Shown here one piece after another: positions 16,144 to 34,703 of a stretch of 64,000 nt of DNA; positions within the stretch are counted from its first letter, which is position 1; every line of letters begins with the position of its first letter. Below the pieces are notes generated by a model. The model ran no database searches. It worked only from the letters and a program-made list of their open reading frames with translations, and was not told the origin of the DNA. Source of the stretch: Clostridia bacterium (GTDB lineage Bacteria; Bacillota; Clostridia; UBA1212; UBA1255); NCBI GenBank assembly GCA_017560765.1, contig JAFZEI010000015.1, forward strand, positions 397 through 64,396, written 5' to 3'. The position numbers were made by a program, and so were the translations under genes.

Positions 16144-16161
16144 TATATATCTTTTCCTTTC

Positions 16162-17397
16162 TTAATCTCTTTTGAAAAGGTCTCTCGTATACACTTTCTC
16201 TTTAACATCATCAAGGCAAGCGTCATATCTGTTTGCTATTATACAATCACACTGCTTTTTAAAAGTCTCTAGGTCATTTACAATTTTACTGCCGTAAAAT
16301 ACTGAATTATCCTCCAAAGTCGGCTCATAAATAATAACAGTCGTTCCTTCTGCTTTTATTCTCTTCATTACTCCCTGTATAGAACTCTGTCGGAAATTGT
16401 CGGAATTGCTCTTCATTGTCAATCTATAAACGCCTACAGTGAGATTTTGCGCGTTATTTCCGTCAAAGCCTGCCTTTTTTAGCACACGCTCCGCAATAAA
16501 ATCTTTTCTCGTCCTGTTGCTTTCTACAATCGCACCTATCAGATTTTCAGGAATATCTGCATAATTCGCAAGCAACTGCTTTGTATCTTTTGGCAAGCAG
16601 TACCCTCCGTAACCGAATGAAGGATTATTGTAGTGATTGCCTATTCTTGGGTCTAAACATACACCTTCTATTATTGCTTGTGTGTCAAGGCCTTTGATTT
16701 CCGCATACGTATCCAGCTCATTAAAATACGATACTCTCAAAGCCAAATATGTGTTTGCAAAAAGCTTCACTGCCTCTGCCTCTGTAGTTCCCATGAAAAG
16801 AGTATCAACATTTTCTTTGATTGCGCCTTCTTGTAAAAGTTCTGCAAAAGTATGAGCTGCTGTCACAAGCTTCTCGTTTTGCATATCCGTTCCCACTATT
16901 ATTCTTGACGGATACAAGTTGTCATACAAAGCTTTTGATTCTCTTAAAAACTCAGGGCTGAAAAGTATGTTTTCTGTGTTATATTTTTTTCTTACTTTTT
17001 CTGTGAAGCCTACAGGTATTGTGGATTTTATTACCATTACAGCATTTGGATTGCATTTTTTTACAAGTTCTATGACTGCTTCGACTGCCGTTGTGTCGAA
17101 ATAATTTTTTGTGCTGTCATAATTGGTTGGTGCTGCAATAACTATAAAATCTGCATCGGAATATGCTTTGTCCCCATCTACCGTTGCTGTTAGATTTAAT
17201 TCTTTGGTAGATAAATATTCTTCAATTTCTTTGTCCTGTATGGGTGATTTTTTTTCATTAATAAGAGCTACCTTTTCAGGGACAATGTCTACAGCAGTAA
17301 CTTGATTATGCTGTGCCAAAAGGACAGCTAATGAAAGTCCCACATATCCTGTTCCGGCAACTGCAATTTTAAAATTATTCATATTATCCTCCCACAA
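16162..17397 (-). CDS. ugd: UDP-glucose 6-dehydrogenase (nucleotide-sugar dehydrogenase family)
   Basis: N-terminal Rossmann motif [10 protein letters not shown], catalytic Cys region GGYCLPKD and a C-terminal UDP-binding domain. Confidence 0.85.
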
Positions 17398-17400
17398 AAT

Positions 17401-18582
17401 TTACGAAATAATTTCTGCAGAAATTTTTTTGCAAGAGAGCTTTTCGCAAGGTTCCCAAATCTGCTTTTCTGCCATAAGAGCTCTGATTTTTTGTATGATA
17501 TCGTTTTCTTCATTATTACACCATAAATATCTGTCAAAGCCTGCAATATACTCTATCATTGCTTCTTTGTTATCTCCGTCTACAAGTACAAGCACAGGTC
17601 TGTTAGTAGCAGCATAATGATAAAGCTTTCCCGGTATTTGCGTGCCTTTTTTATTAAGAACGCAAATATATAAATCAGTTTTCTTTTCAAGCTCACTTAT
17701 ATCGCCTCTTGGAAAAACATTTATATTATCTGTTTTTTCAAGTGCAAAATCTGCTTTTCCCATAACATTCAATATCAATTCATTCTTCATGCCGTTACAA
17801 GCATTATACAAAGGCATAATATCTCTGTTATTCGAAAAATAATCTCCGTAATAACCTACAGTAAATATATTATTTTTTGTTTCACGATAAATCTTCGTTT
17901 CGATGAACGGAGTAGGCACAAATATCATTTTGTTTGCAAACTCCGGTTGTATTCTCTGCTCTTCTTGTAGTGTGAACGGTGATGTATAAACAATTTTATC
18001 TGCCTTTGAAAAGAGCTTTTTTTCTTCTCTTTTTATTGCTTTTTTAGTGTATATTGTTTTTGATGCTGAGATATCTCCTACCAAAGGGTCTCCCCAATAC
18101 TGTATCCACTTTTTATAAGTTAAACCTTGCTCAACTAATTTTGCCATAGCTATATGGCTTGTCTTTGGATCGGAATCTGACATCACATACTCATATTCTT
18201 TTGACGGAAGTTTTTCTATAGAAACTTTTTTTGCGATATCATGTGTAAAATCGTAAAGTGTTGTATAATGATACAATTTTCTTGCTATTTTAAATAGTTT
18301 ATGTTTTATACCGCCTTTTGAACCGCTAAGCATTCCGTATACTGCTTGATTTGCACCGCCGTTTTTTTCTTCATCTGCATAAATTATATTGACTTGCTCC
18401 ATAAAACCATAGCCGGACAAATCCTTTAATACTATATTTGAATTTGCATGAATGCAGAACAAATCTACTTCATATCCGTTCTCAACGAATCCCTTTATTA
18501 CAGCCAATGTTCTAATCATGGATGATGAAGAAGCATTTGGTGCTGCCATTTTTACTACGAGAATTTTTTTGTTATTTTTCAT
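17401..18582 (-). CDS. Putative glycosyltransferase (GT-B fold, GT4-like)
   Basis: 393 aa with an N-terminal Rossmann-like half and a C-terminal half typical of GT-B enzymes. Only weak motif conservation can be judged by eye. Confidence 0.4.
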   Translation of the reverse strand: MKNNKKILVVKMAAPNASSSSMIRTLAVIKGFVENGYEVDLFCIHANSNIVLKDLSGYGFMEQVNIIYADEEKNGGANQAVYGMLSGSKGGIKHKLFKIARKLYHYTTLYDFTHDIAKKVSIEKLPSKEYEYVMSDSDPKTSHIAMAKLVEQGLTYKKWIQYWGDPLVGDISASKTIYTKKAIKREEKKLFSKADKIVYTSPFTLQEEQRIQPEFANKMIFVPTPFIETKIYRETKNNIFTVGYYGDYFSNNRDIMPLYNACNGMKNELILNVMGKADFALEKTDNINVFPRGDISELEKKTDLYICVLNKKGTQIPGKLYHYAATNRPVLVLVDGDNKEAMIEYIAGFDRYLWCNNEENDIIQKIRALMAEKQIWEPCEKLSCKKISAEIIS

Positions 18583-19669
18583 TTTCCAATATATCCGCTA
18601 TTCTTTTGCATGCAAAACCATCCCCGTAAGGATTGCTGGCATGTGCCATCTTGTTATATTCTTCTTTGTTATCCAGAAGCTTCGTAAAATTATTATATAT
18701 CACTTCTTCATCTGTGCCTACCAGCTTTAATGTGCCGGCTTCAATCCCTTCCGGGCGTTCCGTTGTATCTCTCATAACGAGAACAGGTTTACCCAAAGAG
18801 GGCGCTTCCTCCTGTATTCCGCCGGAGTCTGTAAGTATCATATAGCTGTTAGCCAAAAAGTTATGAAAATCGAGTACCTCCAATGGCTCAATAATATGAA
18901 TTCTGTCACAATTGCCCAACTCTTCTGAGGCTGCTTGTCTTACAACCGGATTCATATGAATGGGATAAATTGCCTTTACGTCAGGGTGTTCGTCTAATAC
19001 TCTACGTATTGCACGGAACATATTATGCATAGGCTGTCCCAAATTTTCTCTGCGGTGTGCTGTTATAAGAATCAGTCGGCTGTCTTTTGCCCATTCCAAC
19101 TCTTTATGAAAATACTCTGTCTTTACAGTAGTTTTTAAAGCATCTATAGCCGTATTTCCCGTAACATATATATACTTTTCATCTTTGCCTTCTTTTACAA
19201 GATTTTCTTTTGCGAGTAAGGTAGGTGCAAAGTTATATTTTGCAACAATAGATACTGCCTGTCTGTTAAACTCCTCAGGATAAGGACTGTATATATTAAA
19301 TGTTCTCAATCCTGCTTCAACATGTCCGATTGGAATTTGCAAATAAAAACAAGCAAGTGCAGTAACAAAAGTTGTGGAAGTATCACCATGAACAAGAACG
19401 ACATCAGGCTTTACTTGTTCTAATACAGCTTTAATACTGTTTAATATATTTGTAGTTATATCAAACAATGTTTGTTTTTCTTTCATTACAGATAAATCAT
19501 AATCCGGCGTTACATCAAAAGCGTCCAAAACTTGATCAAGCATTTGTCTGTGCTGTCCTGTAACACAAACGACAGTATTTATATTTTTTCTTTTTTTTAG
19601 CTCGTTTACAAGAGGACACATTTTAATTGCCTCAGGTCTTGTGCCGAAAACTAACATTACTGTTTTCAT
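18572..19669 (-). CDS. wecB: UDP-N-acetylglucosamine 2-epimerase (non-hydrolysing)
   Basis: N-terminal MKTVMLVFGTRPEAIKM. Conserved HVEAGLRT and GNT motifs. Confidence 0.9.
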   Translation of the reverse strand: MKTVMLVFGTRPEAIKMCPLVNELKKRKNINTVVCVTGQHRQMLDQVLDAFDVTPDYDLSVMKEKQTLFDITTNILNSIKAVLEQVKPDVVLVHGDTSTTFVTALACFYLQIPIGHVEAGLRTFNIYSPYPEEFNRQAVSIVAKYNFAPTLLAKENLVKEGKDEKYIYVTGNTAIDALKTTVKTEYFHKELEWAKDSRLILITAHRRENLGQPMHNMFRAIRRVLDEHPDVKAIYPIHMNPVVRQAASEELGNCDRIHIIEPLEVLDFHNFLANSYMILTDSGGIQEEAPSLGKPVLVMRDTTERPEGIEAGTLKLVGTDEEVIYNNFTKLLDNKEEYNKMAHASNPYGDGFACKRIADILENEK

Positions 19670-19694
19670 TATAATACCTTCTTCTGTTTATAAA

Positions 19695-20918
19695 TCACAA
19701 ATAGTAAACACTATCTGAATTTATTCCGATATTTTGCGTGTCTAAAACAATTTTTCCCTTTAATTTGTCTGCATTTTCTTTTATCTCATTATGTTTTACC
19801 ATAATAACAACAAAATCTACAGATGATAAGAATTCATCCAAATCAAAAATCTGGTTTTCTGTTATGTTATGCTTTATAAATGGATCATACGCAACAAGAG
19901 GTTGTGCCAAATGTTTTTTCTGACACTCCAAAAGCTGCAGAGCCGGGGATTCTCTGTAGTCGTCCACATTCTCTTTATAAGTCAATCCGTATAAGCCTAC
20001 TTTTGATATGTCTGTCATGCCCTTTTCTTTCATTATGTCATGAATTCTTTCTAAAACAAAAGCCGGCATAGAATCATTTACTTTCATCGATTCCCATATC
20101 ACTTTTGTAAGGCTCGGGTAATCTCCTACCAAAAACCACGGGTCTACGGAAATGCAATGGCCTCCCACTCCGGGGCCCGGATTAAGAATATTTACCCTTG
20201 GGTGCATATTGCAAATTTTAATGATTTCATAAACATTCATATTGTCATTTCTGCAAATTTTTGCCAACTCATTTGCAAACGCTATATTTACTGCTCTGAA
20301 TGTATTCTCTACAACTTTTGTCATTTCTGCCGTTTTTATATCAGTAATAATTATTTCTCCTTGGCAAAAAGAAGCATAATACTCTTTTATTTTCTCACCG
20401 ATTTCTCTGTCATCTGCACCTATTGTTCTGTTGTTATGCAAAAGCTCATATACCATATTGCCGGGAATAATTCTTTCGGGGGCATGTACAAGATTTATAT
20501 CTTTTCCAATAATTAAACCTGCCTTTTCTATTACCGGCCTTACATATTTATCAATTGTTCCGGGAGAAACAGTAGACTCTATTACAATAGTAGCTCCTTT
20601 AGGGCAAACTTTAATTATCTCTTTTACTGCAGAATTCACATAGCATACATCTATTTTTTTTGAAAAACTGTCATACGGAGTTGGCACAGACACAATATAT
20701 GTATCTGTAACACAATATTCCGTAGTAAATTTGATACCGCTCTTCAAAGCTTTTTCAAACAGTTCATCCAAGCCGTCTTCTTTAAAAGTCGTTTTCCCCG
20801 CATTGAGAGTAGCCACAAGTTCCTTATTATAATCTGTTCCTACCACTTCTACCCCATGAGATGCCATCATAAGAGCAGTCGGAAGACCTATATACCCCAA
20901 GCCAATAACATTTACCAT
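19695..20918 (-). CDS. wecC: UDP-N-acetyl-D-mannosamine dehydrogenase-like nucleotide-sugar dehydrogenase
   Basis: VIGLGYIGLP Rossmann motif and a catalytic Cys region (GGHCISVDP). Paired with wecB as in ManNAcA pathways. Confidence 0.8.
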   Translation of the reverse strand: MVNVIGLGYIGLPTALMMASHGVEVVGTDYNKELVATLNAGKTTFKEDGLDELFEKALKSGIKFTTEYCVTDTYIVSVPTPYDSFSKKIDVCYVNSAVKEIIKVCPKGATIVIESTVSPGTIDKYVRPVIEKAGLIIGKDINLVHAPERIIPGNMVYELLHNNRTIGADDREIGEKIKEYYASFCQGEIIITDIKTAEMTKVVENTFRAVNIAFANELAKICRNDNMNVYEIIKICNMHPRVNILNPGPGVGGHCISVDPWFLVGDYPSLTKVIWESMKVNDSMPAFVLERIHDIMKEKGMTDISKVGLYGLTYKENVDDYRESPALQLLECQKKHLAQPLVAYDPFIKHNITENQIFDLDEFLSSVDFVVIMVKHNEIKENADKLKGKIVLDTQNIGINSDSVYYL

Positions 20919-20925
20919 TCTTAAA

Positions 20926-22485
20926 TTACCTCGTTTTCCTTAATTGTGCCTTTTCTTCTTTATTTAAACCAAATGCCCACAATGTGCCCAGATAAACTAC
21001 AGCAAAAGCCGCAACACCCAAAAGCATTTTCGCAAGTAGATTTTCGAAAAGAAGTGTGGCTGCAAAGCAAGCTATTCCGCTTAAAATCAAGCAAATCCAA
21101 ATTTTACCGAATATGTTTTTATACATTTTTATCATATTAATTTTATAAATCTTGTAATAATAAATGTTCATTATTATTACGCTGCCAACAAAATAGCTGA
21201 AAGCAGTTCCTACAGCTGCCGCATAATAATTCCAAAAATACGTACCAACCAAGGAAATTATAATATTCAGTACCGTAGTCAAAAGTAAAATCATGGTTCT
21301 GAACACCAATCTATTCTGGGCCCTTAATATAGATAAGCATACATTGACACACAATTCCAACAAGGAAGGTAACATGAGTATTAGAACAATGATATACACA
21401 TCCTCATAGCCATTCCCTAACCATAAATTGACAAAAGTTTTACCTAAAACAATAAAACCTGTCAATGCACCTCCTAATAAAGCAAATTGTATTCTGCCTG
21501 CCTTAAGAATCAATTTTTGAGTCGCAGAAAGATTTTCATCATCGTTTTTTAAGGTTTCAGTTACTGTAGGAAGCATAACACTTGAAATAGATGTAGAAAG
21601 CTGCTCAAACATAGAAAATATCAATAATCCCATAGAATAAACTGTAACTGCTCCTGCGTTGACGACAGCTCCTATTATTACGTTATCAAGATTTCCGTTG
21701 GCTTGAGATGCAATAGTAGTGATAAAAATCAGCATAGAATACTTAAATGATTCTTTAAACACGCTGTGTTCCCATCTGCTGAATTTTATTTTAACATTTA
21801 ACACACGATTTATATAAACAATTTCAACGCAAAGCATTCCTATTGTCAAAAACAAGTCTAACAATACAATAACCAAGGCATCTTTTATAAAATGCAAAGC
21901 AACATATATTGTCAATATTCTTGTAAGCAAGCGGATTATCTTTAATCCGTTGCCAAACATGAATTTATTAAAACCTGTTATCACGCCATTGAAAACATTT
22001 TCAAAAATATGAGCAATAATGCCGGCACACAAAAAGACATACAGCTGTTTAGCTTTTACTAGCTCTGCTGCTGTAAGACCTTTCCCATATATATTGTCAA
22101 TAAAAAAATAAATAATTCCGGTAGCAATTATAACGACTACGCTAATAATACCTGCTTGAAATAAGCTCATAGATATAAAATTAGGTATTTTTTCTTCTTC
22201 TTTGTCAGCTCTGTATCTTGATATATATCTCAATAATGTACCGCCAAGACCAATATCTAAAACCAACAGTGCTGCTGTAAAAGAAGACATAGTCTTGTAA
22301 ACACCATAAGCACTGTCGCCTAGCTTGTCAACAATATATGGAGTAACCAACAAACCGGAAACAGTATTAAGTATTATTAATATATAAGAAAGAATCGCAC
22401 CATATTTTACTTGCGATAATGAAATTTTTCTCAAAGTTTTTCTCCCGTATTTTTTTCTTTTGCTCGCCTTATTATGCCAACACAC
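20926..22485 (-). CDS. wzx: Oligosaccharide flippase (Wzx, MOP superfamily)
   Basis: Roughly 12-14 predicted TM helices. Polysaccharide biosynthesis protein family pattern. The true start is probably downstream of the listed one, which overlaps the next gene. Confidence 0.7.
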   Translation of the reverse strand: MCWHNKASKRKKYGRKTLRKISLSQVKYGAILSYILIILNTVSGLLVTPYIVDKLGDSAYGVYKTMSSFTAALLVLDIGLGGTLLRYISRYRADKEEEKIPNFISMSLFQAGIISVVVIIATGIIYFFIDNIYGKGLTAAELVKAKQLYVFLCAGIIAHIFENVFNGVITGFNKFMFGNGLKIIRLLTRILTIYVALHFIKDALVIVLLDLFLTIGMLCVEIVYINRVLNVKIKFSRWEHSVFKESFKYSMLIFITTIASQANGNLDNVIIGAVVNAGAVTVYSMGLLIFSMFEQLSTSISSVMLPTVTETLKNDDENLSATQKLILKAGRIQFALLGGALTGFIVLGKTFVNLWLGNGYEDVYIIVLILMLPSLLELCVNVCLSILRAQNRLVFRTMILLLTTVLNIIISLVGTYFWNYYAAAVGTAFSYFVGSVIIMNIYYYKIYKINMIKMYKNIFGKIWICLILSGIACFAATLLFENLLAKMLLGVAAFAVVYLGTLWAFGLNKEEKAQLRKTR

Positions 22486-23657
22486 AATCCAATAAGCAGG
22501 AAGAAGTTTGGTTCTAATAAATACGAACTTGACAAAAATAATTTAAAGAAGCTATTTGTGCAAAGCAAAGCTATAATGAAAGTTTTTTCTTTACTGCTCT
22601 CACATTTTGACAATGCACTAATATAAAGCGCTATCAATATTCCGAATATTAAAGAACCGCCAAGCACACCAAAGGACACCCATAATTCCAAAATAATGTT
22701 ATGCGCATATGCCGTTGTAAACTCTCTGTCTGCTGCAACACCCAGTCCCCAAGGATTTTCCTTTATTACAGACAGTAAGGTTTTATTAATATTATCACGT
22801 CCATTTGGGTCTGCTATTTCTCCTTCTTTAAAACTGTCCAAAATTCTGGTACTCATACCCATACTTGAAACTATCTCCCTCAAAAAGTCAATAATCTCAT
22901 CCATAAACAAAAAGACAACAAGAAGAAATAAAATAATTGCTAAATAAGCGACTATTTTGTTTTTTGTTTGCTTTATAAAGACAAAATATGCAAAAGCAAA
23001 AACTATTATTGCAACAACAGGGCCTCTTGTGCCATATGATATCAATAGCACAAATCCTATAATCATGGCAATCAGATCAATTTTTTTATATTTTTCAAAG
23101 AAATATCCGGCTGTCAGTGCAACATGAGGAAGGAGTTTATATGCCATACCCATATTGTCATCACCAATTTGCAATGTATCTGTTCCGAAAATTATTAAAC
23201 TTGCCAAATCTGCAAAAATTGCATAAACAGAAAGGACGTGTAAATAGTCAATCACCTTTTCACTTCTGTATGCCGCACCTACAAGAAATAAGGTGAGAAT
23301 GAATAAAATAAAATCTCGTCTTTCCTCTGATAATACTGTAGCAACCTCTGTATAAGCTGCGTATTGTATTCCTAATTGATATCCGGCTGCAACAGCAAAG
23401 TATAGAAATATATCAGATAGCCGCAATCGCTCAAAAAAGTAAGAGACAGAAAGCAAAATTGCCGTAATAAAAAACAAATAAACTACAATTTCTGTAATGT
23501 AGTTAAAAAACGGCAACCTGTACATGACAAGTTTTAAGTCAGAAATTAATGTATTGTTTGCCCAAACCAAGCAAAACAAAAATAAAAAAAACATTTCTGA
23601 ATTAAAAGGTTTCTCTAATATATTTATATTTTTTGGATATTCTCTATTGATTGCCAT
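22431..23657 (-). CDS. wzy: O-antigen ligase/polymerase-like membrane protein (Wzy-like)
   Basis: Polytopic membrane protein with a large periplasmic-type loop, in the context of wzx and GT genes. Confidence 0.55.
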   Translation of the reverse strand: MAINREYPKNINILEKPFNSEMFFLFLFCLVWANNTLISDLKLVMYRLPFFNYITEIVVYLFFITAILLSVSYFFERLRLSDIFLYFAVAAGYQLGIQYAAYTEVATVLSEERRDFILFILTLFLVGAAYRSEKVIDYLHVLSVYAIFADLASLIIFGTDTLQIGDDNMGMAYKLLPHVALTAGYFFEKYKKIDLIAMIIGFVLLISYGTRGPVVAIIVFAFAYFVFIKQTKNKIVAYLAIILFLLVVFLFMDEIIDFLREIVSSMGMSTRILDSFKEGEIADPNGRDNINKTLLSVIKENPWGLGVAADREFTTAYAHNIILELWVSFGVLGGSLIFGILIALYISALSKCESSKEKTFIIALLCTNSFFKLFLSSSYLLEPNFFLLIGLCVGIIRRAKEKNTGEKL

Positions 23658-23674
23658 AAATTCCCCTTCTTGAT

Positions 23675-24703: not shown

Positions 24704-24715
24704 ATTTTCCTCTTT

Positions 24716-26309: not shown

Positions 26310-26327
26310 TTTTACTTACTCCTTTCT

Positions 26328-27212
26328 TTAATTAAAAAATTTTATGCACTTTTTAGGAGAATCCAACATATTAACCGGATGCTCAGGCTTTCTTCTTTCT
26401 TCAGACGGCAATAAAGAATAATCCCCATACATTTCTTTAAGAAATGTATCTGAATTAATTAATGCCATAAGTTTTTCTCCTCTAAATAAAACCTCGCCGT
26501 ATCCCTCGTCATAACTTTTTTTATTAAAACGTCTTCCGGTCTCGTACATTCTTGACGTATAACGTGTATATATTCCCGATGGTTTATGTTTCTTTATAGC
26601 AACCGCCTTGTCATTCAGCTCAAATATATCGCGAGGTCCGACAATTATTTTAGCAAAAAGACCGAGAATACTACTTACAATATCCCTTATCTTCTTATAC
26701 GTCTTGTTATATTTGTCGTGCCTTACATTTCTCACTTTAGTATTGTGAAATGCAGTTCTTAAAAATCCTGTTTTAAATTTTTTCCACTTAAAAACCAATT
26801 CGTTTGCAGGTTTTTCTTCATTAATAAATAAATCAATGTATATTTTTTTCTCCAACAACTCTTTCGTTGTTACCCTGTCAAGAAAATGAATTTTTAATAC
26901 TTTAATTTCTGAATCTTCTGCAAGTACTTGTCTAAGTTTAGTATATTCCGTCCTTGTCATCATTACGTCAGCATCATCATCCCAAGGAACGAAATCACCA
27001 TGTCGCATAGCTCCCAAAAGCGTTCCGTCAGCAAGAGAATACTTTAAATCATGCTCTTTGCAAAAACGGTCAAAAGATAATAGCAAGCGCATCATATCTT
27101 CATGTGCTTCTTTTAAGTTATACTTCTCCTCATAGCTGCCTACTTTACTGTAAGGATATGGGATTATATAGTTAATAATCGCTTTTGTCTTTGTGTCGGC
27201 GCCGCTCATCAA
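26328..27212 (-). CDS. licD: LicD family phosphotransferase (LicD/fukutin-like)
   Basis: YSLADGTLLGAMRHGDFVPWDDDADVMM matches the LicD signature with its DxD motif. Confidence 0.8.
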   Translation of the reverse strand: MMSGADTKTKAIINYIIPYPYSKVGSYEEKYNLKEAHEDMMRLLLSFDRFCKEHDLKYSLADGTLLGAMRHGDFVPWDDDADVMMTRTEYTKLRQVLAEDSEIKVLKIHFLDRVTTKELLEKKIYIDLFINEEKPANELVFKWKKFKTGFLRTAFHNTKVRNVRHDKYNKTYKKIRDIVSSILGLFAKIIVGPRDIFELNDKAVAIKKHKPSGIYTRYTSRMYETGRRFNKKSYDEGYGEVLFRGEKLMALINSDTFLKEMYGDYSLLPSEERRKPEHPVNMLDSPKKCIKFFN

Positions 27213-27732
27213 ATGCCTTCCATCTTTCCTCTGCAGTTTCCAAATATATTAGAGAACGTCTTTTTTCTGCAAAATTTTCAAAAGTATCAATTTGCTTTGC
27301 GGGTATTCCTGCCCAGACAGCACCCGCCGGAATGTCTTTATTAATCAAACTATTAGCTCCGATTACAGTATCAGACCCAATTCTTACATTTCCCAATACA
27401 ATAGTTCCCGAACCAATAAAAACATTATCCTGTATATCTATACAACCCAGTTGCTCTTTAAATTCAGAATTATTTTTCTCTCCATGGTATTTGAAATTTA
27501 AAACACCATGAATCGCGTCATGTACAACAAACTTTACACCGGAAGCTACTTCAACATTATTTCCAAATGAAATAAGCTCGGAATGTAAAGGAACAAGCAT
27601 TGCAGGTAATCTTACATTTTTACCTACGTGATGAAAAATCTTCTTTTTCCTTGCGTAATTTCCTCTTTTAAGTTGATCAAAAAAAAGAAAAAATCTTATA
27701 GATCTGAACATTCTTTTTATATCCATTGCCAA
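27172..27732 (-). CDS. Hexapeptide-repeat (LbH) sugar acetyltransferase
   Basis: Left-handed beta-helix repeats (IGSGTIVLGNVRIGSDTVIGANSLI) in a Maa/WcaF/PglD-like size class. Confidence 0.75.
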   Translation of the reverse strand: MAMDIKRMFRSIRFFLFFDQLKRGNYARKKKIFHHVGKNVRLPAMLVPLHSELISFGNNVEVASGVKFVVHDAIHGVLNFKYHGEKNNSEFKEQLGCIDIQDNVFIGSGTIVLGNVRIGSDTVIGANSLINKDIPAGAVWAGIPAKQIDTFENFAEKRRSLIYLETAEERWKAFDERRRHKDKSDY

Positions 27733-27739
27733 ATATCTC

Positions 27740-28519
27740 CTAAATATACTCTCCGGCTGTTATTCTGAATGTACTGCCTGTCATCATGGCAGAGGAATCT
27801 GACATAAGGTAAATCAATGCCTCCACATAGTCATGTCTTTCCAACATTCTGCCCATCGGAATTGTGTTTGCCGCACGTTTTCTTAATTGTGCCTCAGTTT
27901 CTCCCTGCTGTTTTCTAAGGGCAACTTCACCCTCTGTTGGTGTCCATCCCAAAGTAAGATAGTTGCAACGTATCATTTCCGAAGCATAATTATGAGCAAT
28001 ATGTTCCATAAGAGTAATTAAAACGCCCTTGGAACAAGCGTATGCAGCTCTGTCCTTTTCGCCACCCCACGCATGAGCAGAACCTGTAAAAACTATGGAA
28101 CCTCCACCATTCATTCGCATATATTTTATTGCCTGTTGACAACAAAAAAAGCAAGCCCTGAAATTTACGTTCATTACCTGATTAAAAGTTTCTTCATCAC
28201 AAGTATCTAAAGGAGAAATCGGCGTTACACCTGCATAATTGAAAAAACCGTCTATCTTCCCAAACTTATTTGCAGCTTCGTCAAATAACTTCTTACAATC
28301 TTCTACTTTTTCCAGATCTGTATGGACAAAAATTGCTTCACTTCCATAAGTCTTGATAATTTTAATTGACTTACGAGCAGCGTCTTCATCTCTGCCACCT
28401 ATAACCACTTTAGCTCCGGCTTTTGCAAACTCTTCGGAAATTGTCTTTCCTACTCCTTTTGTACCACCGGACACTACTATAACTTTTTCTTTTAACGGTT
28501 TATTCATATCAAAAATCAA
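27740..28519 (-). CDS. SDR family oxidoreductase
   Basis: TGGTKGVG glycine motif and a YxxxK (YACSK) active site. 259 aa. Confidence 0.8.
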   Translation of the reverse strand: MIFDMNKPLKEKVIVVSGGTKGVGKTISEEFAKAGAKVVIGGRDEDAARKSIKIIKTYGSEAIFVHTDLEKVEDCKKLFDEAANKFGKIDGFFNYAGVTPISPLDTCDEETFNQVMNVNFRACFFCCQQAIKYMRMNGGGSIVFTGSAHAWGGEKDRAAYACSKGVLITLMEHIAHNYASEMIRCNYLTLGWTPTEGEVALRKQQGETEAQLRKRAANTIPMGRMLERHDYVEALIYLMSDSSAMMTGSTFRITAGEYI

Positions 28520-28523
28520 CGCC

Positions 28524-29828
28524 TTATAATTCTAATGCTTTTTTTACATCAAAGCCTTTAAGCAACATGTCATTTCCGTTTGTATCAAAGACCTTAACAC
28601 AATCCATATATTCTCTAAGTTTTTCCCCCAACTCCTGTTTCGAATCACATACAATGTATAATCTTGTCATAACTTGCTTTTCATTACCTATCCATTCTTT
28701 AGGAATATTATCTCCTTCATATAAACGCTGTGCATTTGCAATAATATTTTTATCGTTTTTCCATTTATCCAAACCCTCAATTTTGCCAATGCGTCCCTCT
28801 TTGAGCAAAAACCAAAGTGTAGCAGCCCATTTTCCGCGCAAATAAGGATCATCCGAGGATAAAAGATCCATTTTTCCCTCAGACCCCGTCAAAGCAAATC
28901 TAATAAGCATTTCTCTTTGATCAAAACCTTGAATTTCTTTAATTAGCAGATGCGGTGCCTCTCCCTGAAGTCTAAAGCCTGTATCGTACACATAAAACTC
29001 ACCATTTTCATAAAAAGCAGAAAGCATGAGCACTCCATTACGTATTCCGATGTCCTTGAACATCATTACTGCATTCTCGTGCATTCTCTCAAAATATTCC
29101 TTCATATGCTTTGAGGGGTATGTGCCTCCAAGACACACACGGCTCAACCCGGGCTGTTCATCAGTAGTATATCTGTCATATATACAAGATGCGCTGCATT
29201 GTCCGTCCTTAAACGTATAATACATTCCCATGTCTTCACATTGCATGTATTTTTCTACTATAAAGCGTTTTTTCTTTGAGGCTTCCAAAGCTTTTTCAAC
29301 GGCAGGTTTTAAGTCTTCTTTACTGTAACAAACTGTCATTCCCACACCACCACCGTTATCTACAGGCTTTACCATTACAGGAAATACAATTTTATCAATA
29401 TCTCTGTCATTTAAATCTGCATCAAGATAAAACTCCGGTATTCCGTGAATGCCATACCTTTCACAAGTAGCTTTAAAAACATCTTTAAAGGCAAAAACAT
29501 CAACAATTTGCTGCGTGGCATAGCAAGGAAAACCTAAAGCATTACAAACTTTACAATAGGAAGGAACAAGAATATCAGCAACGCCTACCAGCACACCGTC
29601 AACTTTTTCTTCCATTGCCAAAGCAATAACACCGGGGACATCCATTCCGTCAACATCAAAACTTTTCCAGGAATACTTTTTTGCATCATCAGTATGGCGA
29701 CCGCTTGTAACAATGGTCTTAATTCCCATTTCGTTTGCCAACTTAACAAGTGCTGTTGTTTCAGGATTTCCTCCTAAAATCAATAACTTTTTACCTTCAA
29801 ATTCACTACTCATATAAATTCTCCTCAT
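28524..29828 (-). CDS. ATP-grasp domain protein (carboxylate-amine ligase-like)
   Basis: PreATP-grasp Rossmann N-terminus followed by an ATP-grasp fold. 434 aa. No close named homologue can be assigned by eye. Confidence 0.6.
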   Translation of the reverse strand: MRRIYMSSEFEGKKLLILGGNPETTALVKLANEMGIKTIVTSGRHTDDAKKYSWKSFDVDGMDVPGVIALAMEEKVDGVLVGVADILVPSYCKVCNALGFPCYATQQIVDVFAFKDVFKATCERYGIHGIPEFYLDADLNDRDIDKIVFPVMVKPVDNGGGVGMTVCYSKEDLKPAVEKALEASKKKRFIVEKYMQCEDMGMYYTFKDGQCSASCIYDRYTTDEQPGLSRVCLGGTYPSKHMKEYFERMHENAVMMFKDIGIRNGVLMLSAFYENGEFYVYDTGFRLQGEAPHLLIKEIQGFDQREMLIRFALTGSEGKMDLLSSDDPYLRGKWAATLWFLLKEGRIGKIEGLDKWKNDKNIIANAQRLYEGDNIPKEWIGNEKQVMTRLYIVCDSKQELGEKLREYMDCVKVFDTNGNDMLLKGFDVKKALEL

Positions 29829-29842
29829 TTATACAGTTTCTG

Positions 29843-30613
29843 TTATATAGTTATTCTTTCTCCCACAGTCATAAACATAAAATTATTATTTGGATATTGT
29901 TCTTTCATAATGTGGTAAAATTTCCCGGGATTTCCTCCATGGCACGGAAACATTCCGTAATGACTGGGAATAGTAATTTTGGGCTGTAACGCATTACTTA
30001 AATCTGCACAATCCTGTTCATTTAAATTGCCAAATGCTCCGTTTATCGGTGCAATCAACATATCTATTTCTCCAAAAGCCATATATTCTTCTGCTTTTTC
30101 AAGATGCAAACAAGTATCTCCGGCCATATATATTATTTTACCATCTACGGAAATTACCACTCCAAATGCATCCGGTGCGGCATCAGAATGATCGCAGCTT
30201 ACAAAATGCAAATCAAAACCATCCAAAGAGACGCTTTGTCCTGCTTTTACATAATGCACATTGCTTTCCTTCATTTGCAAACGTAAAACTTCTTCTCTGC
30301 ATCGTGTAGATGCAAAAAGCTTAGTATTGGGATTCGACATAAGCAGCGGTATAGAATCTATATCAAAATGGTCTACATGTGCATGAGTTGTTATCAAATA
30401 ATCAAATTCTATATCAAAAGCACCAAATAATTTAGGGAGCATTCTTTTAAAACCAATATTACCTTCAATTCGCTCTACACATTCCGACAAATACAAATCT
30501 ATGCCTAAAAGCTTCCCGTATTTATTTTTTATTATATACCCCGCCTGTCCCACATAAAAAAGATGTGTTTCTCCAAGCCGTGCAGACATAACATTTGTTA
30601 CGAAATCATTCAT
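29843..30613 (-). CDS. MBL-fold metallo-hydrolase
   Basis: THAHVDHFD (HxHxDH) motif plus downstream His/Asp ligands. Confidence 0.75.
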   Translation of the reverse strand: MNDFVTNVMSARLGETHLFYVGQAGYIIKNKYGKLLGIDLYLSECVERIEGNIGFKRMLPKLFGAFDIEFDYLITTHAHVDHFDIDSIPLLMSNPNTKLFASTRCREEVLRLQMKESNVHYVKAGQSVSLDGFDLHFVSCDHSDAAPDAFGVVISVDGKIIYMAGDTCLHLEKAEEYMAFGEIDMLIAPINGAFGNLNEQDCADLSNALQPKITIPSHYGMFPCHGGNPGKFYHIMKEQYPNNNFMFMTVGERITI

Positions 30614-30629
30614 AAACTATAATACCTAC

Positions 30630-31253
30630 CTATACAGTATTTTGTGACTCTACGTATTCAGCAAAATCCTCCATTGTAACAGAAGTTTCTGAGGATATTC
30701 CTTCCCGCTTAAAAACTGCAGCTACAGTTTTGAAAAGAATTTTTATATCCAATAAAAGGGAAACATTATTCACATAATATAAATCTAATTGAAATCGTTC
30801 CTCCCAAGACAGTAAGTTCCTGCCATTTGCCTGTGCATACCCTGTTAATCCCGGCCTTACATCATGTCTGTGTTTTTGTTCTTCTGAATAGTATGGCAAG
30901 TATTTTACCAATAAAGGCCTGGGGCCGACAATTGACATATCGCCTTTTAATATATTTATTAATTCCGGTAGCTCATCGAGAGAAGATGCTCTCAAAAACT
31001 TTCCATACGGGACCAATCTTTCTTCATCCGGTAAAAGATTATCGTTCGTATCTTTCTCGCAAGTCATTGTCCTGAATTTAATAAGCTTAAAAACCTTCTC
31101 TTTTTTACCCGGTCGTGGTTGTACAAAAAAAGGATTGCCTTTCATAACAATAGCTCCTGCGACAATCATGATTATTATAATCGGCGAAAAAACAATTAAG
31201 GCAGATAAAGAAAAAACAAAATCAAGTATACGTTTAATAAACTTTATGTACAT
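30630..31253 (-). CDS. pglC: Undecaprenyl-phosphate sugar phosphotransferase (small PglC/WbaP C-terminal type initiating enzyme)
   Basis: Single N-terminal TM helix plus the bacterial sugar-transferase motifs KFRTM and DELPQL-like LDELPEL..GDMSIVGPRP. Confidence 0.85.
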   Translation of the reverse strand: MYIKFIKRILDFVFSLSALIVFSPIIIIMIVAGAIVMKGNPFFVQPRPGKKEKVFKLIKFRTMTCEKDTNDNLLPDEERLVPYGKFLRASSLDELPELINILKGDMSIVGPRPLLVKYLPYYSEEQKHRHDVRPGLTGYAQANGRNLLSWEERFQLDLYYVNNVSLLLDIKILFKTVAAVFKREGISSETSVTMEDFAEYVESQNTV

Positions 31254-31254
31254 A

Positions 31255-32442
31255 TTAAAAACAACTCTTTATTATCTCAATTACAACATCTTGCTCTTGC
31301 TCTGTCATTTTTATATCACTGGGCAAGCACAATCCCCTATTAAATATATCTTCACATACACAAAAATTATCAGCTTGTACAACACCACAATTTTTAAATA
31401 CAGGTTGCATATGCATCGGCTTCCATATTGGTCTCGACTCAACATTGTACGAAGCCAATTTTTCGCGAATTTCCTCAGGACAAGACTTTCCTTTTTCGCT
31501 AATATATGTAAATTCCTTTTCTTGGCGAATTTGCTTGCACATTGCTTCTTTATCAATAATTATGCAACTAAGCCAATAATTTGGTTCCATTCTTTTCTCA
31601 TCATAAGGATTCATTTTTAAAGGAAGATTCTTTAAACCTTCTTTGTATCTTTCATATATAGCCTTTTTGGCTTTTACATGCTCATCAAGATGTAATAATT
31701 GTCCTCTGCCTATCCCGGCAAGGACATTGCTTAATCGATAATTGTACCCCACAATCTCATGCTGATACCATGGAGCATCTTCTTTTGCTTGTGTAGACAT
31801 CTTTCTTGCCAAGTCTATGGCGTTTTTATCATTGCTTAATAACATTCCGCCGCTACTGCAAGTAATAATTTTGTTTCCGTTAAAGCTTATTACACCATAA
31901 TCTCCATAGTTGCCCGTTTGTACTCCTTCAAAAGTTGCACCTAAAGACTCCGCCGCATCTTCAATCAAAACAGCATTGTGTCTTTTGCAGATAGCTTTTA
32001 TTTCGTCTAATTTTGCAGGCACGCCATAAAGGTTCGTCACAATAACAGCCTTTGCATCACCGTAAATCTCAAAAGCTCTTTCAAGTGCTTTCGGATCCAT
32101 ATTCCATGTTTCTGTTTCGCTATCAATAAAAACAGGCTCTGCTGCTTCATAAACAACGGGATTTACCGTTGCAATAAAAGTCATATCCATACAAAAAACT
32201 TTATCTCCCGGTTTAACACCGGCTAATTTAACTGCTAAATGCAAAGATGTTGTTCCTGAAGACAATGCCAAAGAGTAATGACATCCTACTTTATCACAAA
32301 TTGCTTGCTCTAATTGATTTATATTTTCACCCAATGTGCTGACCCAATTTGTATCAAAAGCTTCATCAACAAAAAGTCGTTCCTCAGAATGCATCGTAGG
32401 TGTTGCTAGCCATATTTTTTTATCAAAGGGTTTAATTACCAT
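31255..32442 (-). CDS. pglE: DegT/DnrJ/EryC1/StrS-family PLP-dependent sugar aminotransferase (PglE/WecE-like)
   Basis: Family pattern (SSGTTSLHLA..., PLP-lysine region). 395 aa. Confidence 0.85.
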   Translation of the reverse strand: MVIKPFDKKIWLATPTMHSEERLFVDEAFDTNWVSTLGENINQLEQAICDKVGCHYSLALSSGTTSLHLAVKLAGVKPGDKVFCMDMTFIATVNPVVYEAAEPVFIDSETETWNMDPKALERAFEIYGDAKAVIVTNLYGVPAKLDEIKAICKRHNAVLIEDAAESLGATFEGVQTGNYGDYGVISFNGNKIITCSSGGMLLSNDKNAIDLARKMSTQAKEDAPWYQHEIVGYNYRLSNVLAGIGRGQLLHLDEHVKAKKAIYERYKEGLKNLPLKMNPYDEKRMEPNYWLSCIIIDKEAMCKQIRQEKEFTYISEKGKSCPEEIREKLASYNVESRPIWKPMHMQPVFKNCGVVQADNFCVCEDIFNRGLCLPSDIKMTEQEQDVVIEIIKSCF

Positions 32443-32446
32443 TTTT

Positions 32447-34480
32447 TCACCTTACTATCTTAGTTTGCTCCTGACAAATCGAATCATTCTCAATAAAATT
32501 CGAGTTACCCGCAGGCTTATACGTAGTTACAATTTTCATAACCATTTCTCTTACATCATCATCTCTGTTTTCAAAGCACGCCTTCATTAAAAACTGTAGC
32601 TGATGCAAAAACTTATCCGTATCAAAATTTATAGGCTTTCCTATATGTATAAGTTTATTGGGAGTACTTGTTATACCCTCTTCAGCCATAAGCTTCTCCT
32701 CAAAAAGCTTCTCTCCCGGCCTTAAACCAATATATTCAATTTTAATATTAACATCAGGAATATAACCTGACAATTTAATTAAATTTCTCGCTAATGTATC
32801 AATTTTCATCGGAGAACCCATATCCAAAACAAAGATTTCTCCGCCCTTCGCATACGTTTCTGCCTGCAGAACGAGAGAGACAGCCTCCGGAATAGTCATA
32901 AAATAACGTATTATATCAGGATGTGTAACTTTTACAGGTCCACCGTTTGCAATTTGTTTTTTAAACAAAGGAATTACAGACCCGTTGCTGCCCAAAACAT
33001 TACCGAAGCGCACAGCAACAAATTCCGTATGAATCTCTCCGGGATGTTTACACGGCATTTTAAATTCCCCATCCTCATCCTCAACATGAGCCTGTATAAC
33101 AGGAAGCTCGTCCGCTCTGCCTTCCTTAATAAGCTTATCAAAAGACTGAATTATCATCTCGCACAAACGCTTGCTGGCGCCCATAATATTTGTTGGGTTA
33201 ACCGCCTTATCTGTCGAAATCAAAACAAAGCGTTTGCAACCATTCATAATAGCAGCATATGCTGTCTTGTATGTTCCGATGGCATTATTTTTTATAGCTT
33301 CGCAAGGGCTACTCTCCATAAGAGGAACATGCTTGTGTGCCGCAGCATGGAAGACAATTTCAGGCTTGTACTTATTAAAAACCTGGTTTAACTTACGGCT
33401 GTCTCTGACTGAGCCTATAAGCACCACAAGATTTAATCCGTAACACGTTTCCTTAAGCTCTTGCTCTATATCATAAGCATTGTTCTCATAAACATCAAAA
33501 ATTATCAACTGCTTAGGTGCATGTTTTGCAATCTGTCTGCACAACTCACTGCCAATTGAACCGCCGCCGCCTGTAACAAGAATTACCTTTCCGCTCAACT
33601 GACGGAAAATGTCACTCATTTCTACCTTTATCGGTTCTCTTCCCAAAAGATCTTCCACCGCAATATCCTTCATGGCAGCAACAGAAACATCACCGTTAAC
33701 AAGCTGGTATAAGCCGGGCAGATTTTTTACTTCGCATTTTGTGTTTTGGCAAATATTAAGTATTTCACTTTTGACTTCGGCAGAACAACTGGGAATAGCA
33801 AAATATATCTTCTCTATATTGTACTTTTCTACATTTACTAAAATATCGTCACGTCCGCCTACTATCGGTACGCCATCAAGATATCTTCCCCATTTACTGC
33901 TATCGTCATCAATTATACAGCAAACAACATCCTTGATTGTTGTTGCTCTTTTAACATCCTGTAAAATCATTTGTCCTGCAGAACCGGCACCAATCAGCAT
34001 AACTTTTGAAAAACCTGCCCCTGAGGTATTTTTTATTGCACTGTTTCTTTGTAACAGAATAAAACGATATCCAAAACGCACTGTAATCAAGAAAACAAAC
34101 TGTATTATTGAGCCAAATAAATGATATGAAAAAATCATTTGTTTAAAAATAACTGTAATTCCTATCCAGTGAGCAACAGAAGTAATAATTGATGCCAATA
34201 AAATTCTGGAAAACTCATTAAAACTTGCATATCTCCACAAGCTGCGATAAAGTCTGAGCAAAAAGAAAATAACAATGCAAAAGACAGAATATATCGGTGC
34301 AAATTTTGCAAACGGTTCTAAATATCCACTGCTTTCTACCAAAGAAAACTTACAGTCAAATCTAAACCACAATCCTAAAAAATATGATAAATTAACAGCA
34401 ATCACATCATAAAAAACAAGTAATATCGCTGCATAATTAATAGATTTTTTTTGTTCAATCGATTTGTTGTTATTCATCTT
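32447..34480 (-). CDS. pglF: Membrane-anchored UDP-GlcNAc 4,6-dehydratase (PglF/CapD/WbpM family)
   Basis: Four N-terminal TM helices and two Rossmann domains (GAGSAG...; VTGGGGSIGSEL). The start is set at the internal ATG at 34480, which follows GGAGG. The longer ORF-track start at 34648 looks like a spurious extension. Confidence 0.85.
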   Translation of the reverse strand, partial: KMNNNKSIEQKKSINYAAILLVFYDVIAVNLSYFLGLWFRFDCKFSLVESSGYLEPFAKFAPIYSVFCIVIFFLLRLYRSLWRYASFNEFSRILLASIITSVAHWIGITVIFKQMIFSYHLFGSIIQFVFLITVRFGYRFILLQRNSAIKNTSGAGFSKVMLIGAGSAGQMILQDVKRATTIKDVVCCIIDDDSSKWGRYLDGVPIVGGRDDILVNVEKYNIEKIYFAIPSCSAEVKSEILNICQNTKCEVKNLPGLYQLVNGDVSVAAMKDIAVEDLLGREPIKVEMSDIFRQLSGKVILVTGGGGSIGSELCRQIAKHAPKQLIIFDVYENNAYDIEQELKETCYGLNLVVLIGSVRDSRKLNQVFNKYKPEIVFHAAAHKHVPLMESSPCEAIKNNAIGTYKTAYAAIMNGCKRFVLISTDKAVNPTNIMGASKRLCEMIIQSFDKLIKEGRADELPVIQAHVEDEDGEFKMPCKHPGEIHTEFVAVRFGNVLGSNGSVIPLFKKQIANGGPVKVTHPDIIRYFMTIPEAVSLVLQAETYAKGGEIFVLDMGSPMKIDTLARNLIKLSGYIPDVNIKIEYIGLRPGEKLFEEKLMAEEGITSTPNKLIHIGKPINFDTDKFLHQLQFLMKACFENRDDDVREMVMKIVTTYKPAGNSNFIENDSICQEQTKIVR

Positions 34481-34674
34481 TTGCCTCCTTTTCTTTAATA
34501 CTTTTTTATTTCTTTTTTGTATGCTTCGCCAACCTAAACATATATTAATTTTGTTTAGATGCTTTTGTAAAAAATATATCTTTTTGTTGTCTGAAACGAG
34601 CGTAAAGCTACGATTTAAGACAAAACAAAAGTCATACAAAAAAAGCACAAACAGAACAAACCATTCGCTGTTTA

Positions 34675-34703
34675 ATTTTATTTCTTAAACACCTTTTTGT
34701 CAA
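34675..34703 (-). promoter_or_regulatory. Candidate sigma-A promoter for the glycan locus (TTGACA-17-TAAAAT on the minus strand)
   Basis: Read directly: revcomp gives TTGACA at 34703..34698 and TAAAAT at 34680..34675 with a 17-nt spacer. A leader of about 200 nt runs to the pglF start. Confidence 0.35.

Follow-up and report, generated by a model that had tools for sequence, protein, structure and literature searches.

A probable Wzx/Wzy-dependent surface-polysaccharide locus of a gut Clostridia bacterium that combines a PglF/PglE/PglC-like initiating module with an ATP-grasp cassette

Seventeen intact, tightly packed, and co-directional genes occupy the minus strand from 34477 to 16162 in a 64,000-nucleotide (nt) stretch of DNA from a Clostridia bacterium (GenBank assembly GCA_017560765.1, contig JAFZEI010000015.1, positions 397 to 64,396; the whole stretch is referred to below as the window). 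We consider it likely that these genes form a chromosomal, strain-variable, Wzx/Wzy-dependent locus for a surface heteropolysaccharide, i.e., a capsule or a wall-linked polymer similar to teichoic or teichuronic acid, in an uncultured gut or rumen Clostridia bacterium. An earlier note had described 16162–34480 as a single-strand gene cluster opened by a classic bacillosamine-type initiating set. The genes are indeed real and the cluster itself is not a chance pattern; its end is moved to 34477, where the ATG of the first gene is preceded by an AGGAGG ribosome-binding site, and the initiating set loses one of its supposed members. By all appearances this is an ordinary surface-sugar cluster, and what is unusual about it is that the window lacks a PglD-type acetyltransferase, in whose place an uncharacterised ligase may act.

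In the order of transcription, the locus encodes a PglF-like dehydratase, a DegT aminotransferase, a Bac_transf phosphoglycosyltransferase (PGT), a metallo-β-lactamase (MBL) fold hydrolase, an ATP-grasp ligase, a short-chain dehydrogenase/reductase (SDR), a left-handed β-helix (LbH) acyltransferase, a LicD protein, a nucleotidyltransferase, a 282-amino acid (aa) protein, a GT2 glycosyltransferase, a Wzy_C protein, Wzx, a WecC-like dehydrogenase, WecB, a 393-aa protein, and a Ugd-like dehydrogenase. Annotation with hidden Markov models left nearly every family call of the earlier note standing.

The first gene (32447–34477, minus strand, as are all genes of the locus) codes for a membrane-anchored UDP-GlcNAc 4,6-dehydratase of the PglF/EpsC/CapD type, with 676 aa, four N-terminal hydrophobic, transmembrane (TM) segments, and matches to Polysacc_synt_2 (381 bits) and CoA_binding_3. 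Its closest solved relative is Campylobacter jejuni PglF (PDB code 5bju, 282 bits), and other 4,6-dehydratases score lower (CapD 155, FnlA-type 143, FlaA1 133, and CapE 132 bits). The catalytic stretch ISTDKAVNPTNIMGASK aligns with ISTDKAVRPTNIMGCTK of PglF, and in the motif STDKAVxPTNIMG the methionine aligns with the methionine of the PglF chain, TDK...M being kept; PseB, we take it, has a tyrosine at this position. The protein reaches 180 bits on the PseB model (cut-off 408) and 36 bits on the LegB model (cut-off 475). On these scores and motifs the enzyme classifies as a membrane-anchored, retaining dehydratase of the PglF type, not of the FlaA1 or PseB type. The second gene (31255–32442) encodes a PglE-like sugar 4-aminotransferase of the DegT family (395 aa, 298 bits), for which C. 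jejuni PglE (1o61) is the closest solved relative (279.5 bits, E 4e-82). Its best NCBIfam model is the LegC family, at 341 bits below the cut-off of 420, followed by PseC at 224 bits. The LegC family shares the equatorial C4-amine stereochemistry expected of a PglE-type PLP aminotransferase, and a gluco or galacto product is not readable from the sequence.

The third gene (30630–31253) encodes a small monotopic PGT of 207 aa (Bac_transf 206 bits) of the PglC/EpsL type, which acts on di-N-acetylbacillosamine (diNAcBac). It aligns without gaps over residues 1–197 with Campylobacter concisus PglC (8e37/8g1n; 239 bits, 54% identity), and retains the DE dyad, the PRP motif, all five residues of the aromatic box (Y118, Y122, W150, F154, and F197), and the C-terminal extension. 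The aromatic box, a GLLLP loop, the C-terminal extension, and an E117–K196 salt bridge have been described as predictors of UDP-diNAcBac use (Anderson et al., PMC10186338), and small PGTs form isofunctional clusters in which users of diNAcBac, FucNAc4N, and KdgNAc are kept apart (PMC11626204). The salt bridge is charge-swapped to K117/D196 in the present enzyme, which reads as a compensated pair. The protein can thus be described as a small monotopic PGT with diNAcBac fingerprints, and initiation of the PglF/PglE/PglC type, as claimed in the earlier note, is supported. A diamino-trideoxyhexose as the reducing-end sugar of the product, also proposed there, is well supported by the same comparisons; "diamino" is all they support, and the di-N-acetyl state is not shown. 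In an overall tally, three of four defining features of a diNAcBac module are represented, that of the aminotransferase by its resemblance to PglE, and the PglD feature fails.

Within the 64-kb window there is no PglD-type gene and, among the scanned open reading frames (ORFs), no second hexapeptide protein, so that more than one N4 substituent is possible for the first sugar. The Pfam scan for absent families covered window ORFs of at least 150 aa, two of which (42344–43108 and 43252–44127) had no Pfam match at all; four ORFs stood outside it, at 45771–46979 (elongation factor Tu), 47095–49185, 49238–49708, and 15578–16165 (antisense to deoC). Three genes downstream of the PGT form an accessory cassette. 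The first (29843–30613) encodes a UPF0173-type MBL-fold hydrolase (256 aa, Lactamase_B_3 and Lactamase_B_2), whose best solved relatives are uncharacterised UPF0173 hydrolases. The second (28524–29813) encodes an ATP-grasp ligase of 429 aa (CPSase_L_D2 and Dala_Dala_lig_C) from a large family related to L-amino-acid ligases, and the third (27740–28507) a classical SDR oxidoreductase (255 aa, adh_short_C2 159 bits), which is 99% identical in aa sequence to the copy in a sister locus. On this evidence the ATP-grasp protein is a candidate N-acylating enzyme or decorator.

The ATP-grasp family comprises 456 representative clusters at E<1e-30, with relatives carrying LAL_C2 (L-amino-acid-ligase C-terminal) and PylC-like domains. 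Among 65 genome loci (L001–L065), close homologues with 73–81% identity extend over four phyla and occur in Clostridia, Bacteroidales, Sphaerochaetaceae, and Holdemania, usually within a cassette of the order GT2 (412 aa), MBL, ATP-grasp, SDR, optional LbH, and LicD. Fusion proteins of MBL with ATP-grasp, or of ATP-grasp with SDR, exist (P0012, P0039, P0054, P0087, P0352, and P0401; the SDR is fused in P0352), and GNAT, FemAB-like, and second ATP-grasp domains are further fusion partners. The pattern implies that the MBL, ATP-grasp, and SDR genes have spread horizontally and are coupled in function. In about 35 of the 65 loci, homologues of PglE and the PGT lie directly upstream of the cassette.

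A possible, and still tentative, explanation is that the ATP-grasp enzyme, with its fused or linked MBL and SDR partners, takes the place of PglD and would equip the C4 amine with an aminoacyl group or an acyl group other than acetyl. The precedent is Neisseria PglB2, an ATP-grasp/PGT protein that makes glyceramido-acetamido-trideoxyhexose (GATDH) and not diNAcBac (PMC11130364), and the lack of a PglD-type gene in the window, together with the domains and fusion partners found in the family, points the same way. In a second sample, of metagenome loci chosen independently by PGT similarity, a PglD-type LbH gene occurs in 11 loci, an ATP-grasp homologue in 3, and both in 0. Of the loci selected by ATP-grasp, 33 have a PGT, and a PglD-type gene is present anywhere in only 2 of these (Fisher p = 0.0018). 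The p value carries no correction for phylogeny; the loci compared stem from two samples selected in different ways, and lack phylogenetic independence. One locus, L124 (985–7642), has a full-length ATP-grasp homologue (427 aa, 28% identity, E 5e-50) exactly between PglE and an aromatic-box PGT. The gene order there, as in L097 and L082, is PglF, a NusG-like gene, PglE, ATP-grasp, and aromatic-box PGT, with no PglD-type gene, so that the ATP-grasp gene of such loci (beside the PGT in L082) occupies the usual position of PglD. On the other side, the ATP-grasp protein has no close characterised relative, the best match among solved structures being 36 bits, and a PGT–ATP-grasp fusion with the architecture of PglB2 was not seen among the nine fusion proteins scanned from the listed family representatives. 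Furthermore, the cassette recurs in a Lachnospiraceae group (L010, L011, L015, L019, L060, and L062), where neither PglE nor a PGT lies within 10 kb of it and DltA/DltB/DltD-like genes come next. These copies rule out a strict link between the cassette and bacillosamine, and the cassette may instead serve decoration of a teichoic-acid type. The literature offered nothing usable on a LicD/ATP-grasp/MBL cassette, on ATP-grasp enzymes with bacillosamine, on PDB entries 8VR3, 8VR5, 8VR6, and 8VRM, or on CDP-2-glycerol Gtp genes.

For the N4 position itself, we regard two outcomes as equally possible and neither as probable: an acetyl group from an unlinked PglD-type gene, and acylation or aminoacylation, other than acetylation, by the neighbouring ATP-grasp enzyme together with MBL and SDR. 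A free amine is distinctly less likely, as is any other substituent, and an acetyl group from the LbH enzyme is less likely again. A wider proposal, put forward with a shade more reserve than the first two, is that in this locus and in dozens of related gut and rumen loci of Clostridia, Bacteroidales, Spirochaetes, and Erysipelotrichia, PglD has been replaced by a ~430-aa ATP-grasp enzyme, in which case the reducing-end sugar would carry a non-acetyl (hydroxyacyl or aminoacyl) N4 group and the strain-variable LbH enzyme would acetylate the new side chain. Such a replacement would constitute a widespread, uncharacterised counterpart of Neisseria PglB2 and GATDH. The PglD-less, ATP-grasp-associated configuration, common to many gut and rumen loci, is a mildly novel point.

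The classic alternative, in which the LbH enzyme is a PglD that acetylates the C4 amine to give UDP-diNAcBac before transfer by the PGT, appears improbable. The gene (27172–27726) encodes a hexapeptide acyltransferase of 184 aa (184–186), with Hexapep as its only domain, and was counted in the initiating set by the earlier note. It does lie in the same operon, and the diNAcBac fingerprint of the PGT leads one to expect some N4-acylation. On the NeuD/PglB/VioB (PglD) model TIGR03570 the protein scores 52 bits against a cut-off of 160.8, and the match is confined to model positions 152–202, i.e., the last 50. The N-terminal nucleotide-sugar-binding domain of the PglD family is absent, and coverage is 25% with a profile made from PglD-type genes next to PGT homologues, whereas such genes in other loci reach 193–227 bits on the family model. 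Its solved relatives are mostly galactoside and maltose O-acetyltransferases, γ-carbonic-anhydrase-like proteins, and other hexapeptide proteins, and no PglD name occurs among the 60 solved-structure matches listed. The position also differs: the gene is found four genes downstream of the PGT-side module, after MBL, ATP-grasp, and SDR, and does not adjoin the PglF, PglE, and PglC homologues. In 11 other loci, too, LbH homologues come after the SDR.

The sister loci provide a further argument. A segment of 549 bp in the window (27192–27740) is reduced to 5 bp in L066–L069 (~90% nt identity; the junction in L066 is at 12074–12082), and is missing from L140 (98% nt identity). Gene calling gives no LbH in L139 or L142, and L138 (99.8% nt identity) has the gene, which makes its presence polymorphic among contigs that are at least 98% identical. 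A locus without LbH has all other genes intact, at 86–99% aa identity to those of the window. Because the gene is dispensable in sister loci that keep all other genes, its product is not expected to be the maker of the obligate donor of the PGT. By these criteria of sequence, the LbH protein is not PglD-type and does not belong to the initiating set; it is probably an optional, strain-variable decorator with O-acetyltransferase activity. The indel also rewrites the N-terminus of LicD, which reads MSGADTKTKA in the presence of LbH and MKE in its absence, and the 3′ end of the LbH gene and the start of licD overlap by 38 nt.

Strain variability reaches beyond this indel. Contigs L143–L145 encode an identical MecA and are 99.4–99.5% identical in nt sequence to the window over 32505–36809, and diverge wholly from window position 32505, 58 nt before the stop codon of the pglF-type gene. 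After the breakpoint they carry a 4-reductase-like SDR, a GT2 enzyme, a 331-aa protein, a Wzy_C protein, a GT4 enzyme, a dehydrogenase, and a nucleotidyltransferase. The site thus resembles, in its behaviour, the serotype loci of capsules or O-antigens, with a pglF-type first gene that is conserved. Serotype-like replacement in turn supports a role in surface polysaccharide synthesis, and argues against a housekeeping glycan.

Export and polymerisation genes are found in the second half of the locus. The Wzx-type flippase (20926–22485) has at least ten TM segments and matches Polysacc_synt (51.5 bits against 28.2) and Polysacc_synt_3 (39 bits); the ORF is 519 aa long, homologues are called at 500 aa (e.g., in L066), and the exact start is uncertain. 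The Wzy-like polymerase (22431–23657, 408 aa) is polytopic with at least seven TM segments, and passes both Wzy_C (47 bits against 31.7) and the O-antigen polymerase model O-ag_pol_Wzy (PF14296; 27.8 against 26.6). PGT, Wzx, and Wzy families thus coexist in one locus, all above their cut-offs, in agreement with the Wzx/Wzy dependence stated in the earlier note.

Two glycosyltransferases accompany them. The GT2 enzyme (23675–24703, 342 aa, GT-A fold) matches Glycos_transf_2 with 124 bits and has a C-terminal TM segment (322–340). The 393-aa protein (17401–18582) is a divergent glycosyltransferase with a GT-B, GT4-like fold, as the earlier note had proposed, despite the lack of a Pfam match at E≤0.001 (Glyco_trans_1_4 appears weakly at E 0.039). 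Its family has 420 homologues, a few of which match PF13692 or PF13579, and the family profile found nothing significant among PDB sequences. The AlphaFold2 model (predicted local distance difference test, pLDDT, 89) gave GT-B enzymes for all of its top 50 Foldseek matches, with MshA, PimA, WbnH, and PglA among them, at E ~1e-10. The invariant residues show no evident canonical EX7E motif, and the start at 18582 is favoured because the first β-strand falls at residues 6–10.

Donor supply is represented by three genes. WecB/MnaA (18572–19669, 365 aa) is a non-hydrolysing UDP-GlcNAc 2-epimerase (Epimerase_2 410 bits; TIGR00236 519 against 210), and scores 114 bits on the NeuC model, which has a cut-off of 236. 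The WecC-like UDP-ManNAc 6-dehydrogenase (19695–20918, 407 aa) and the Ugd-like UDP-glucose 6-dehydrogenase (16162–17382, 406 aa) each have three UDPG_MGDP_dh domains; the former also exceeds the subfamily model for nucleotide-sugar dehydrogenases (420 bits against 190), and the exact 406-aa sequence of the latter is MBR5785227.1 at NCBI. Three donor routes, to a bacillosamine-type sugar, UDP-N-acetylmannosaminuronic acid (UDP-ManNAcA), and UDP-glucuronic acid (UDP-GlcA), equal in number the three transferases (PGT, GT2, and GT-B), from which an acidic trisaccharide repeat may be deduced.

A LicD-centred module would decorate this unit. It consists of a LicD-family phosphotransferase (26328–27209, 293 aa here; 94 bits against 22.6), a LicC-like nucleotidyl(cytidylyl)transferase for a small-alcohol phosphate (25569–26309, 246 aa; NTP_transferase, NTP_transf_3, and IspD), and the 282-aa protein (24716–25564), a TIM barrel with the fold of glycerophosphodiester phosphodiesterases (GDPD) that belongs to a rare, unnamed family and has neither a TM segment nor a signal peptide. 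The best solved relative of the second is pneumococcal LicC (1jyk), a weak match at 54.8 bits. The third has no significant Pfam match (GDPD at E 0.044), and its 34 homologues in 5.8 billion proteins carry no Pfam domain. Since the family profile returned nothing significant from PDB sequences, fold comparison was needed: the AlphaFold2 model (pLDDT 93) has GDPD enzymes as its top Foldseek matches throughout (E 1e-11, TM-score 0.65–0.7), and H15, E44, D46, and H60 are invariant in the family. LicA kinase and LicB transporter are absent from the locus, and the GDPD-fold protein is found in their place. The gene list in the earlier note leaves the three genes out, and presumably counted them in its accessory sub-cluster. 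LicD thus occurs with a putative alcohol-phosphate cytidylyltransferase, and from the trio a phosphodiester-linked small-alcohol substituent is predicted, which would make the product partly teichoic-acid-like. In two of the closely related contigs this module seems to carry lesions, LicD being disrupted in L138 (gap at window 26514–26812) and the nucleotidyltransferase of L140 truncated to 143 aa. These could reflect real decay of the phospho module, or a scaffold or assembly artefact.

Several observations weigh against the locus being a complete pathway to an acidic, polymerised surface glycan. Every enzymatic step, and likewise the gluco or galacto stereochemistry of the aminotransferase product, is assigned by homology. 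The diNAcBac fingerprint of the PGT is only partly kept, as its loop reads DNLLP in place of GLLLP, with LLP retained and the glycine lost. The donor genes named as wecC/wecB and ugd in the earlier note are present and WecB passes its cut-off, but the WecC-like enzyme reaches 353 bits on its best equivalog model, for UDP-ManNAc dehydrogenase (cut-off 459), and the Ugd-like enzyme 586 bits on NF011631 (cut-off 757). The trisaccharide count presupposes that each transferase adds a single sugar and that all donors are made by the locus itself. No Wzz, CpsC/CpsD, or LCP family member occurs among the scanned ORFs, which bears out the earlier note on the absence of a Wzz/tyrosine-kinase module, and such genes may be unlinked. 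Finally, the Wzy_C family also holds ligases and O-oligosaccharyltransferases, and sequence cannot separate these from polymerases.

The last two points lead to an alternative that we regard as very improbable, in which the locus makes a short oligosaccharide for O-glycosylation of an S-layer, pilin, or flagellin protein, and the Wzy_C protein is the O-oligosaccharyltransferase or ligase. The Wzy_C domain is common to transferases of the PglL/WaaL type, the automatic PGAP name of the protein is "O-antigen ligase family protein", and initiating modules of the pgl type are classically those of protein glycosylation systems; the missing chain-length regulator would also fit. The protein itself is short, nearly all polytopic, and free of any large extra-membrane domain, it passes the PF14296 polymerase model, and a dedicated Wzx gene adjoins it. 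Replacement of the whole locus in a serotype-like manner is typical of capsule and O-antigen loci, and Bacillus subtilis makes an exopolysaccharide from the same initiating sugar (PMC10653937). A nonulosonic (legionaminic or pseudaminic) acid route or a generic TagF/TagGH teichoic-acid cluster, the two outcomes that the earlier note had named as overturning its reading, can be set aside as effectively refuted for the window, since, despite LegC being the best model for the aminotransferase and the teichoic-acid-like pairing of LicD with a cytidylyltransferase-like gene, the LegC, PseB, and LegB models all stay below their cut-offs, FlaA1 stands at 133 bits against 282 for PglF, the epimerase is of the WecB type, and neither a NeuB-type synthase, NeuA CMP-transferase, or hydrolysing NeuC-type epimerase, nor a member of the TagF/TarL (Glyphos_transf), TagA/WecG, TagB, TagO, or TagGH/ABC-transporter families is found in the window.

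With the surface heteropolysaccharide preferred, the following sequence of events can be proposed. The membrane-anchored PglF-like enzyme would convert UDP-GlcNAc to UDP-2-acetamido-2,6-dideoxy-4-hexulose, and the PglE-like aminotransferase would form the UDP-4-amino sugar, with bacillosamine configuration by homology. The 4-amine would then be acylated by an enzyme other than LbH, before the PglC-type PGT moves the sugar-1-phosphate onto undecaprenyl phosphate. WecB and WecC would provide UDP-ManNAcA and Ugd would provide UDP-GlcA, and the GT-B and GT2 enzymes would add both uronic sugars to complete a trisaccharide repeat. The LicC-like nucleotidyltransferase and the GDPD-fold protein may feed LicD, which would attach the phosphodiester-linked small alcohol, and the LbH enzyme may add an acetyl group, in this strain only. 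Wzx would flip the unit and Wzy polymerise it; chain-length control and a final attachment enzyme would be encoded elsewhere or be absent.

The locus is flanked by housekeeping genes. Upstream lie a divergent gene for an Fe-dependent repressor, MecA, pyruvate:ferredoxin oxidoreductase, and a split transketolase, and downstream deoC, a polysaccharide deacetylase, and GH94 cyclic-glucan-synthase-like genes; NCBI protein accessions on the contig, which is part of a metagenome-assembled genome, run from MBR5785227 to MBR5785261. A σ70-like promoter match (34675–34703, minus strand; TTGACA-17-TAAAAT, 11/12), some 200 nt upstream of the pglF-type gene, is the top score in a scan of 15400–35300, and is a candidate operon promoter only, given that the consensus scan showed no enrichment (80 sites against 81.5 in shuffled sequences). 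The same was true for terminators (12 against 10.4). Rfam at gathering thresholds found zero RNA elements in the whole window, the ~200-nt leader included. NusG-paralogue genes (KOW-containing, UpxY/LoaP-like) open many related loci just upstream of PglE (L014, L022, L026, L032, L035, L041, L045, L050, L097, L124, and others); the window has none, and has the leader.

Outside the locus, two minus-strand ORFs of 1826 and 735 aa at 6923–14543, with GH94/cyclic β-1,2-glucan-synthase-like domains, overlap by 68 nt (9063–9130); they could represent a single gene of ~2,560 aa with a frameshift, or be truly separate. A 1378-aa protein (50451–54587, minus strand) whose sole Pfam domains are Ricin-B lectin repeats is encoded just downstream of rpoB/rpoC (54732–62277), between rpoC and the ORFs leading to elongation factor Tu. 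At the window edge beside rpoB, a gene (62655–63986, plus strand) encodes a protein of 443 aa that starts with an HTH_38 domain and is possibly an IS30-like transposase.

Almost nothing is known about the surface polysaccharides that uncultured gut Clostridia make, yet these glycans shape phage sensitivity and immune recognition by the host. In one gut species, the locus shows a glycan site whose content is replaceable in a serotype-like manner behind a conserved first gene of the pglF type. To our knowledge, bacillosamine-type initiation in Firmicutes has been demonstrated so far only for the exopolysaccharide of B. subtilis, and the present module would extend it to gut anaerobes. Should the ATP-grasp, MBL, and SDR proteins supply the N4-acyl group, they would represent a new and widely transferred route of sugar tailoring, and a new antigenic determinant; if they do not, the locus is one more capsule or teichoic-like cluster.

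Among characterised systems, the Campylobacter pgl cluster provides the closest relatives of the initiating enzymes, as given above for PglF (282 bits), PglE (279.5 bits), and C. concisus PglC (54% identity with the full aromatic box), and the GT-B enzyme of the locus has a PglA-like fold. Unlike pgl, the locus has no PglD-type acetyltransferase, PglB oligosaccharyltransferase, or PglK ABC flippase, and instead contains Wzx/Wzy, uronic-acid donors, and the LicD module, in a Gram-positive host.

The eps operon of B. subtilis has a PglF-like membrane dehydratase as its first gene and is Wzx/Wzy-like. It is also an exopolysaccharide system of a Firmicute, and EpsC, EpsN, EpsM, and EpsL form an initiating module comparable to that described here. 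The PGT EpsL uses UDP-diNAcBac, and the second step is carried out by a GT-B (GT4) enzyme (PMC10653937, PMC10186338). PglD-type EpsM adjoins EpsL there, whereas the present locus has no counterpart, and adds WecB/WecC, Ugd, the LicD, LicC-like, and GDPD-fold proteins, and the MBL/ATP-grasp/SDR cassette.

As in the systems that supply ManNAcA for enterobacterial common antigen in Escherichia coli and for capsules in Staphylococcus aureus (Cap5/8 O and P), a non-hydrolysing 2-epimerase gene adjoins that of an NDP-sugar dehydrogenase. The locus differs from them in that its WecC stays below the equivalog cut-off and a ManNAc(A) transferase of the WecG/TagA type is absent, and therefore the GT2 or the divergent GT-B enzyme must transfer ManNAcA.

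Pneumococcal (type IV) teichoic acid is made in a Wzx/Wzy-like manner from an undecaprenyl-linked repeat, with LicD-family phosphotransferases fed by LicC. The pneumococcal PGT is listed with its sugar in Table 1 of PMC11626204; its donor is UDP-FucNAc4N, and it belongs to another isofunctional cluster. Both systems employ a small PGT acting on a 2-acetamido-4-amino-2,4,6-trideoxyhexose, and among solved structures LicC comes closest to the nucleotidyltransferase of the locus. LicA/LicB, TarI/TarJ, and LCP proteins are not found in the locus, and uronic acids take the place of ribitol phosphate and GalNAc.

With Neisseria PglB2, the locus shares an ATP-grasp enzyme genetically coupled to a bacillosamine-type PGT in the stead of the acetyltransferase (PMC11130364), here two genes after the PGT. 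In contrast to the fused PglB2, the ATP-grasp enzyme is a separate protein of 429 aa with MBL and SDR partners, and its cassette is also found with no PGT at all. Taken together, the locus is, by its sequence relationships, one in which early steps like those of Campylobacter Pgl and B. subtilis Eps are joined to a Wzx/Wzy line, LicD decoration, and uronic acids of the teichuronic type.

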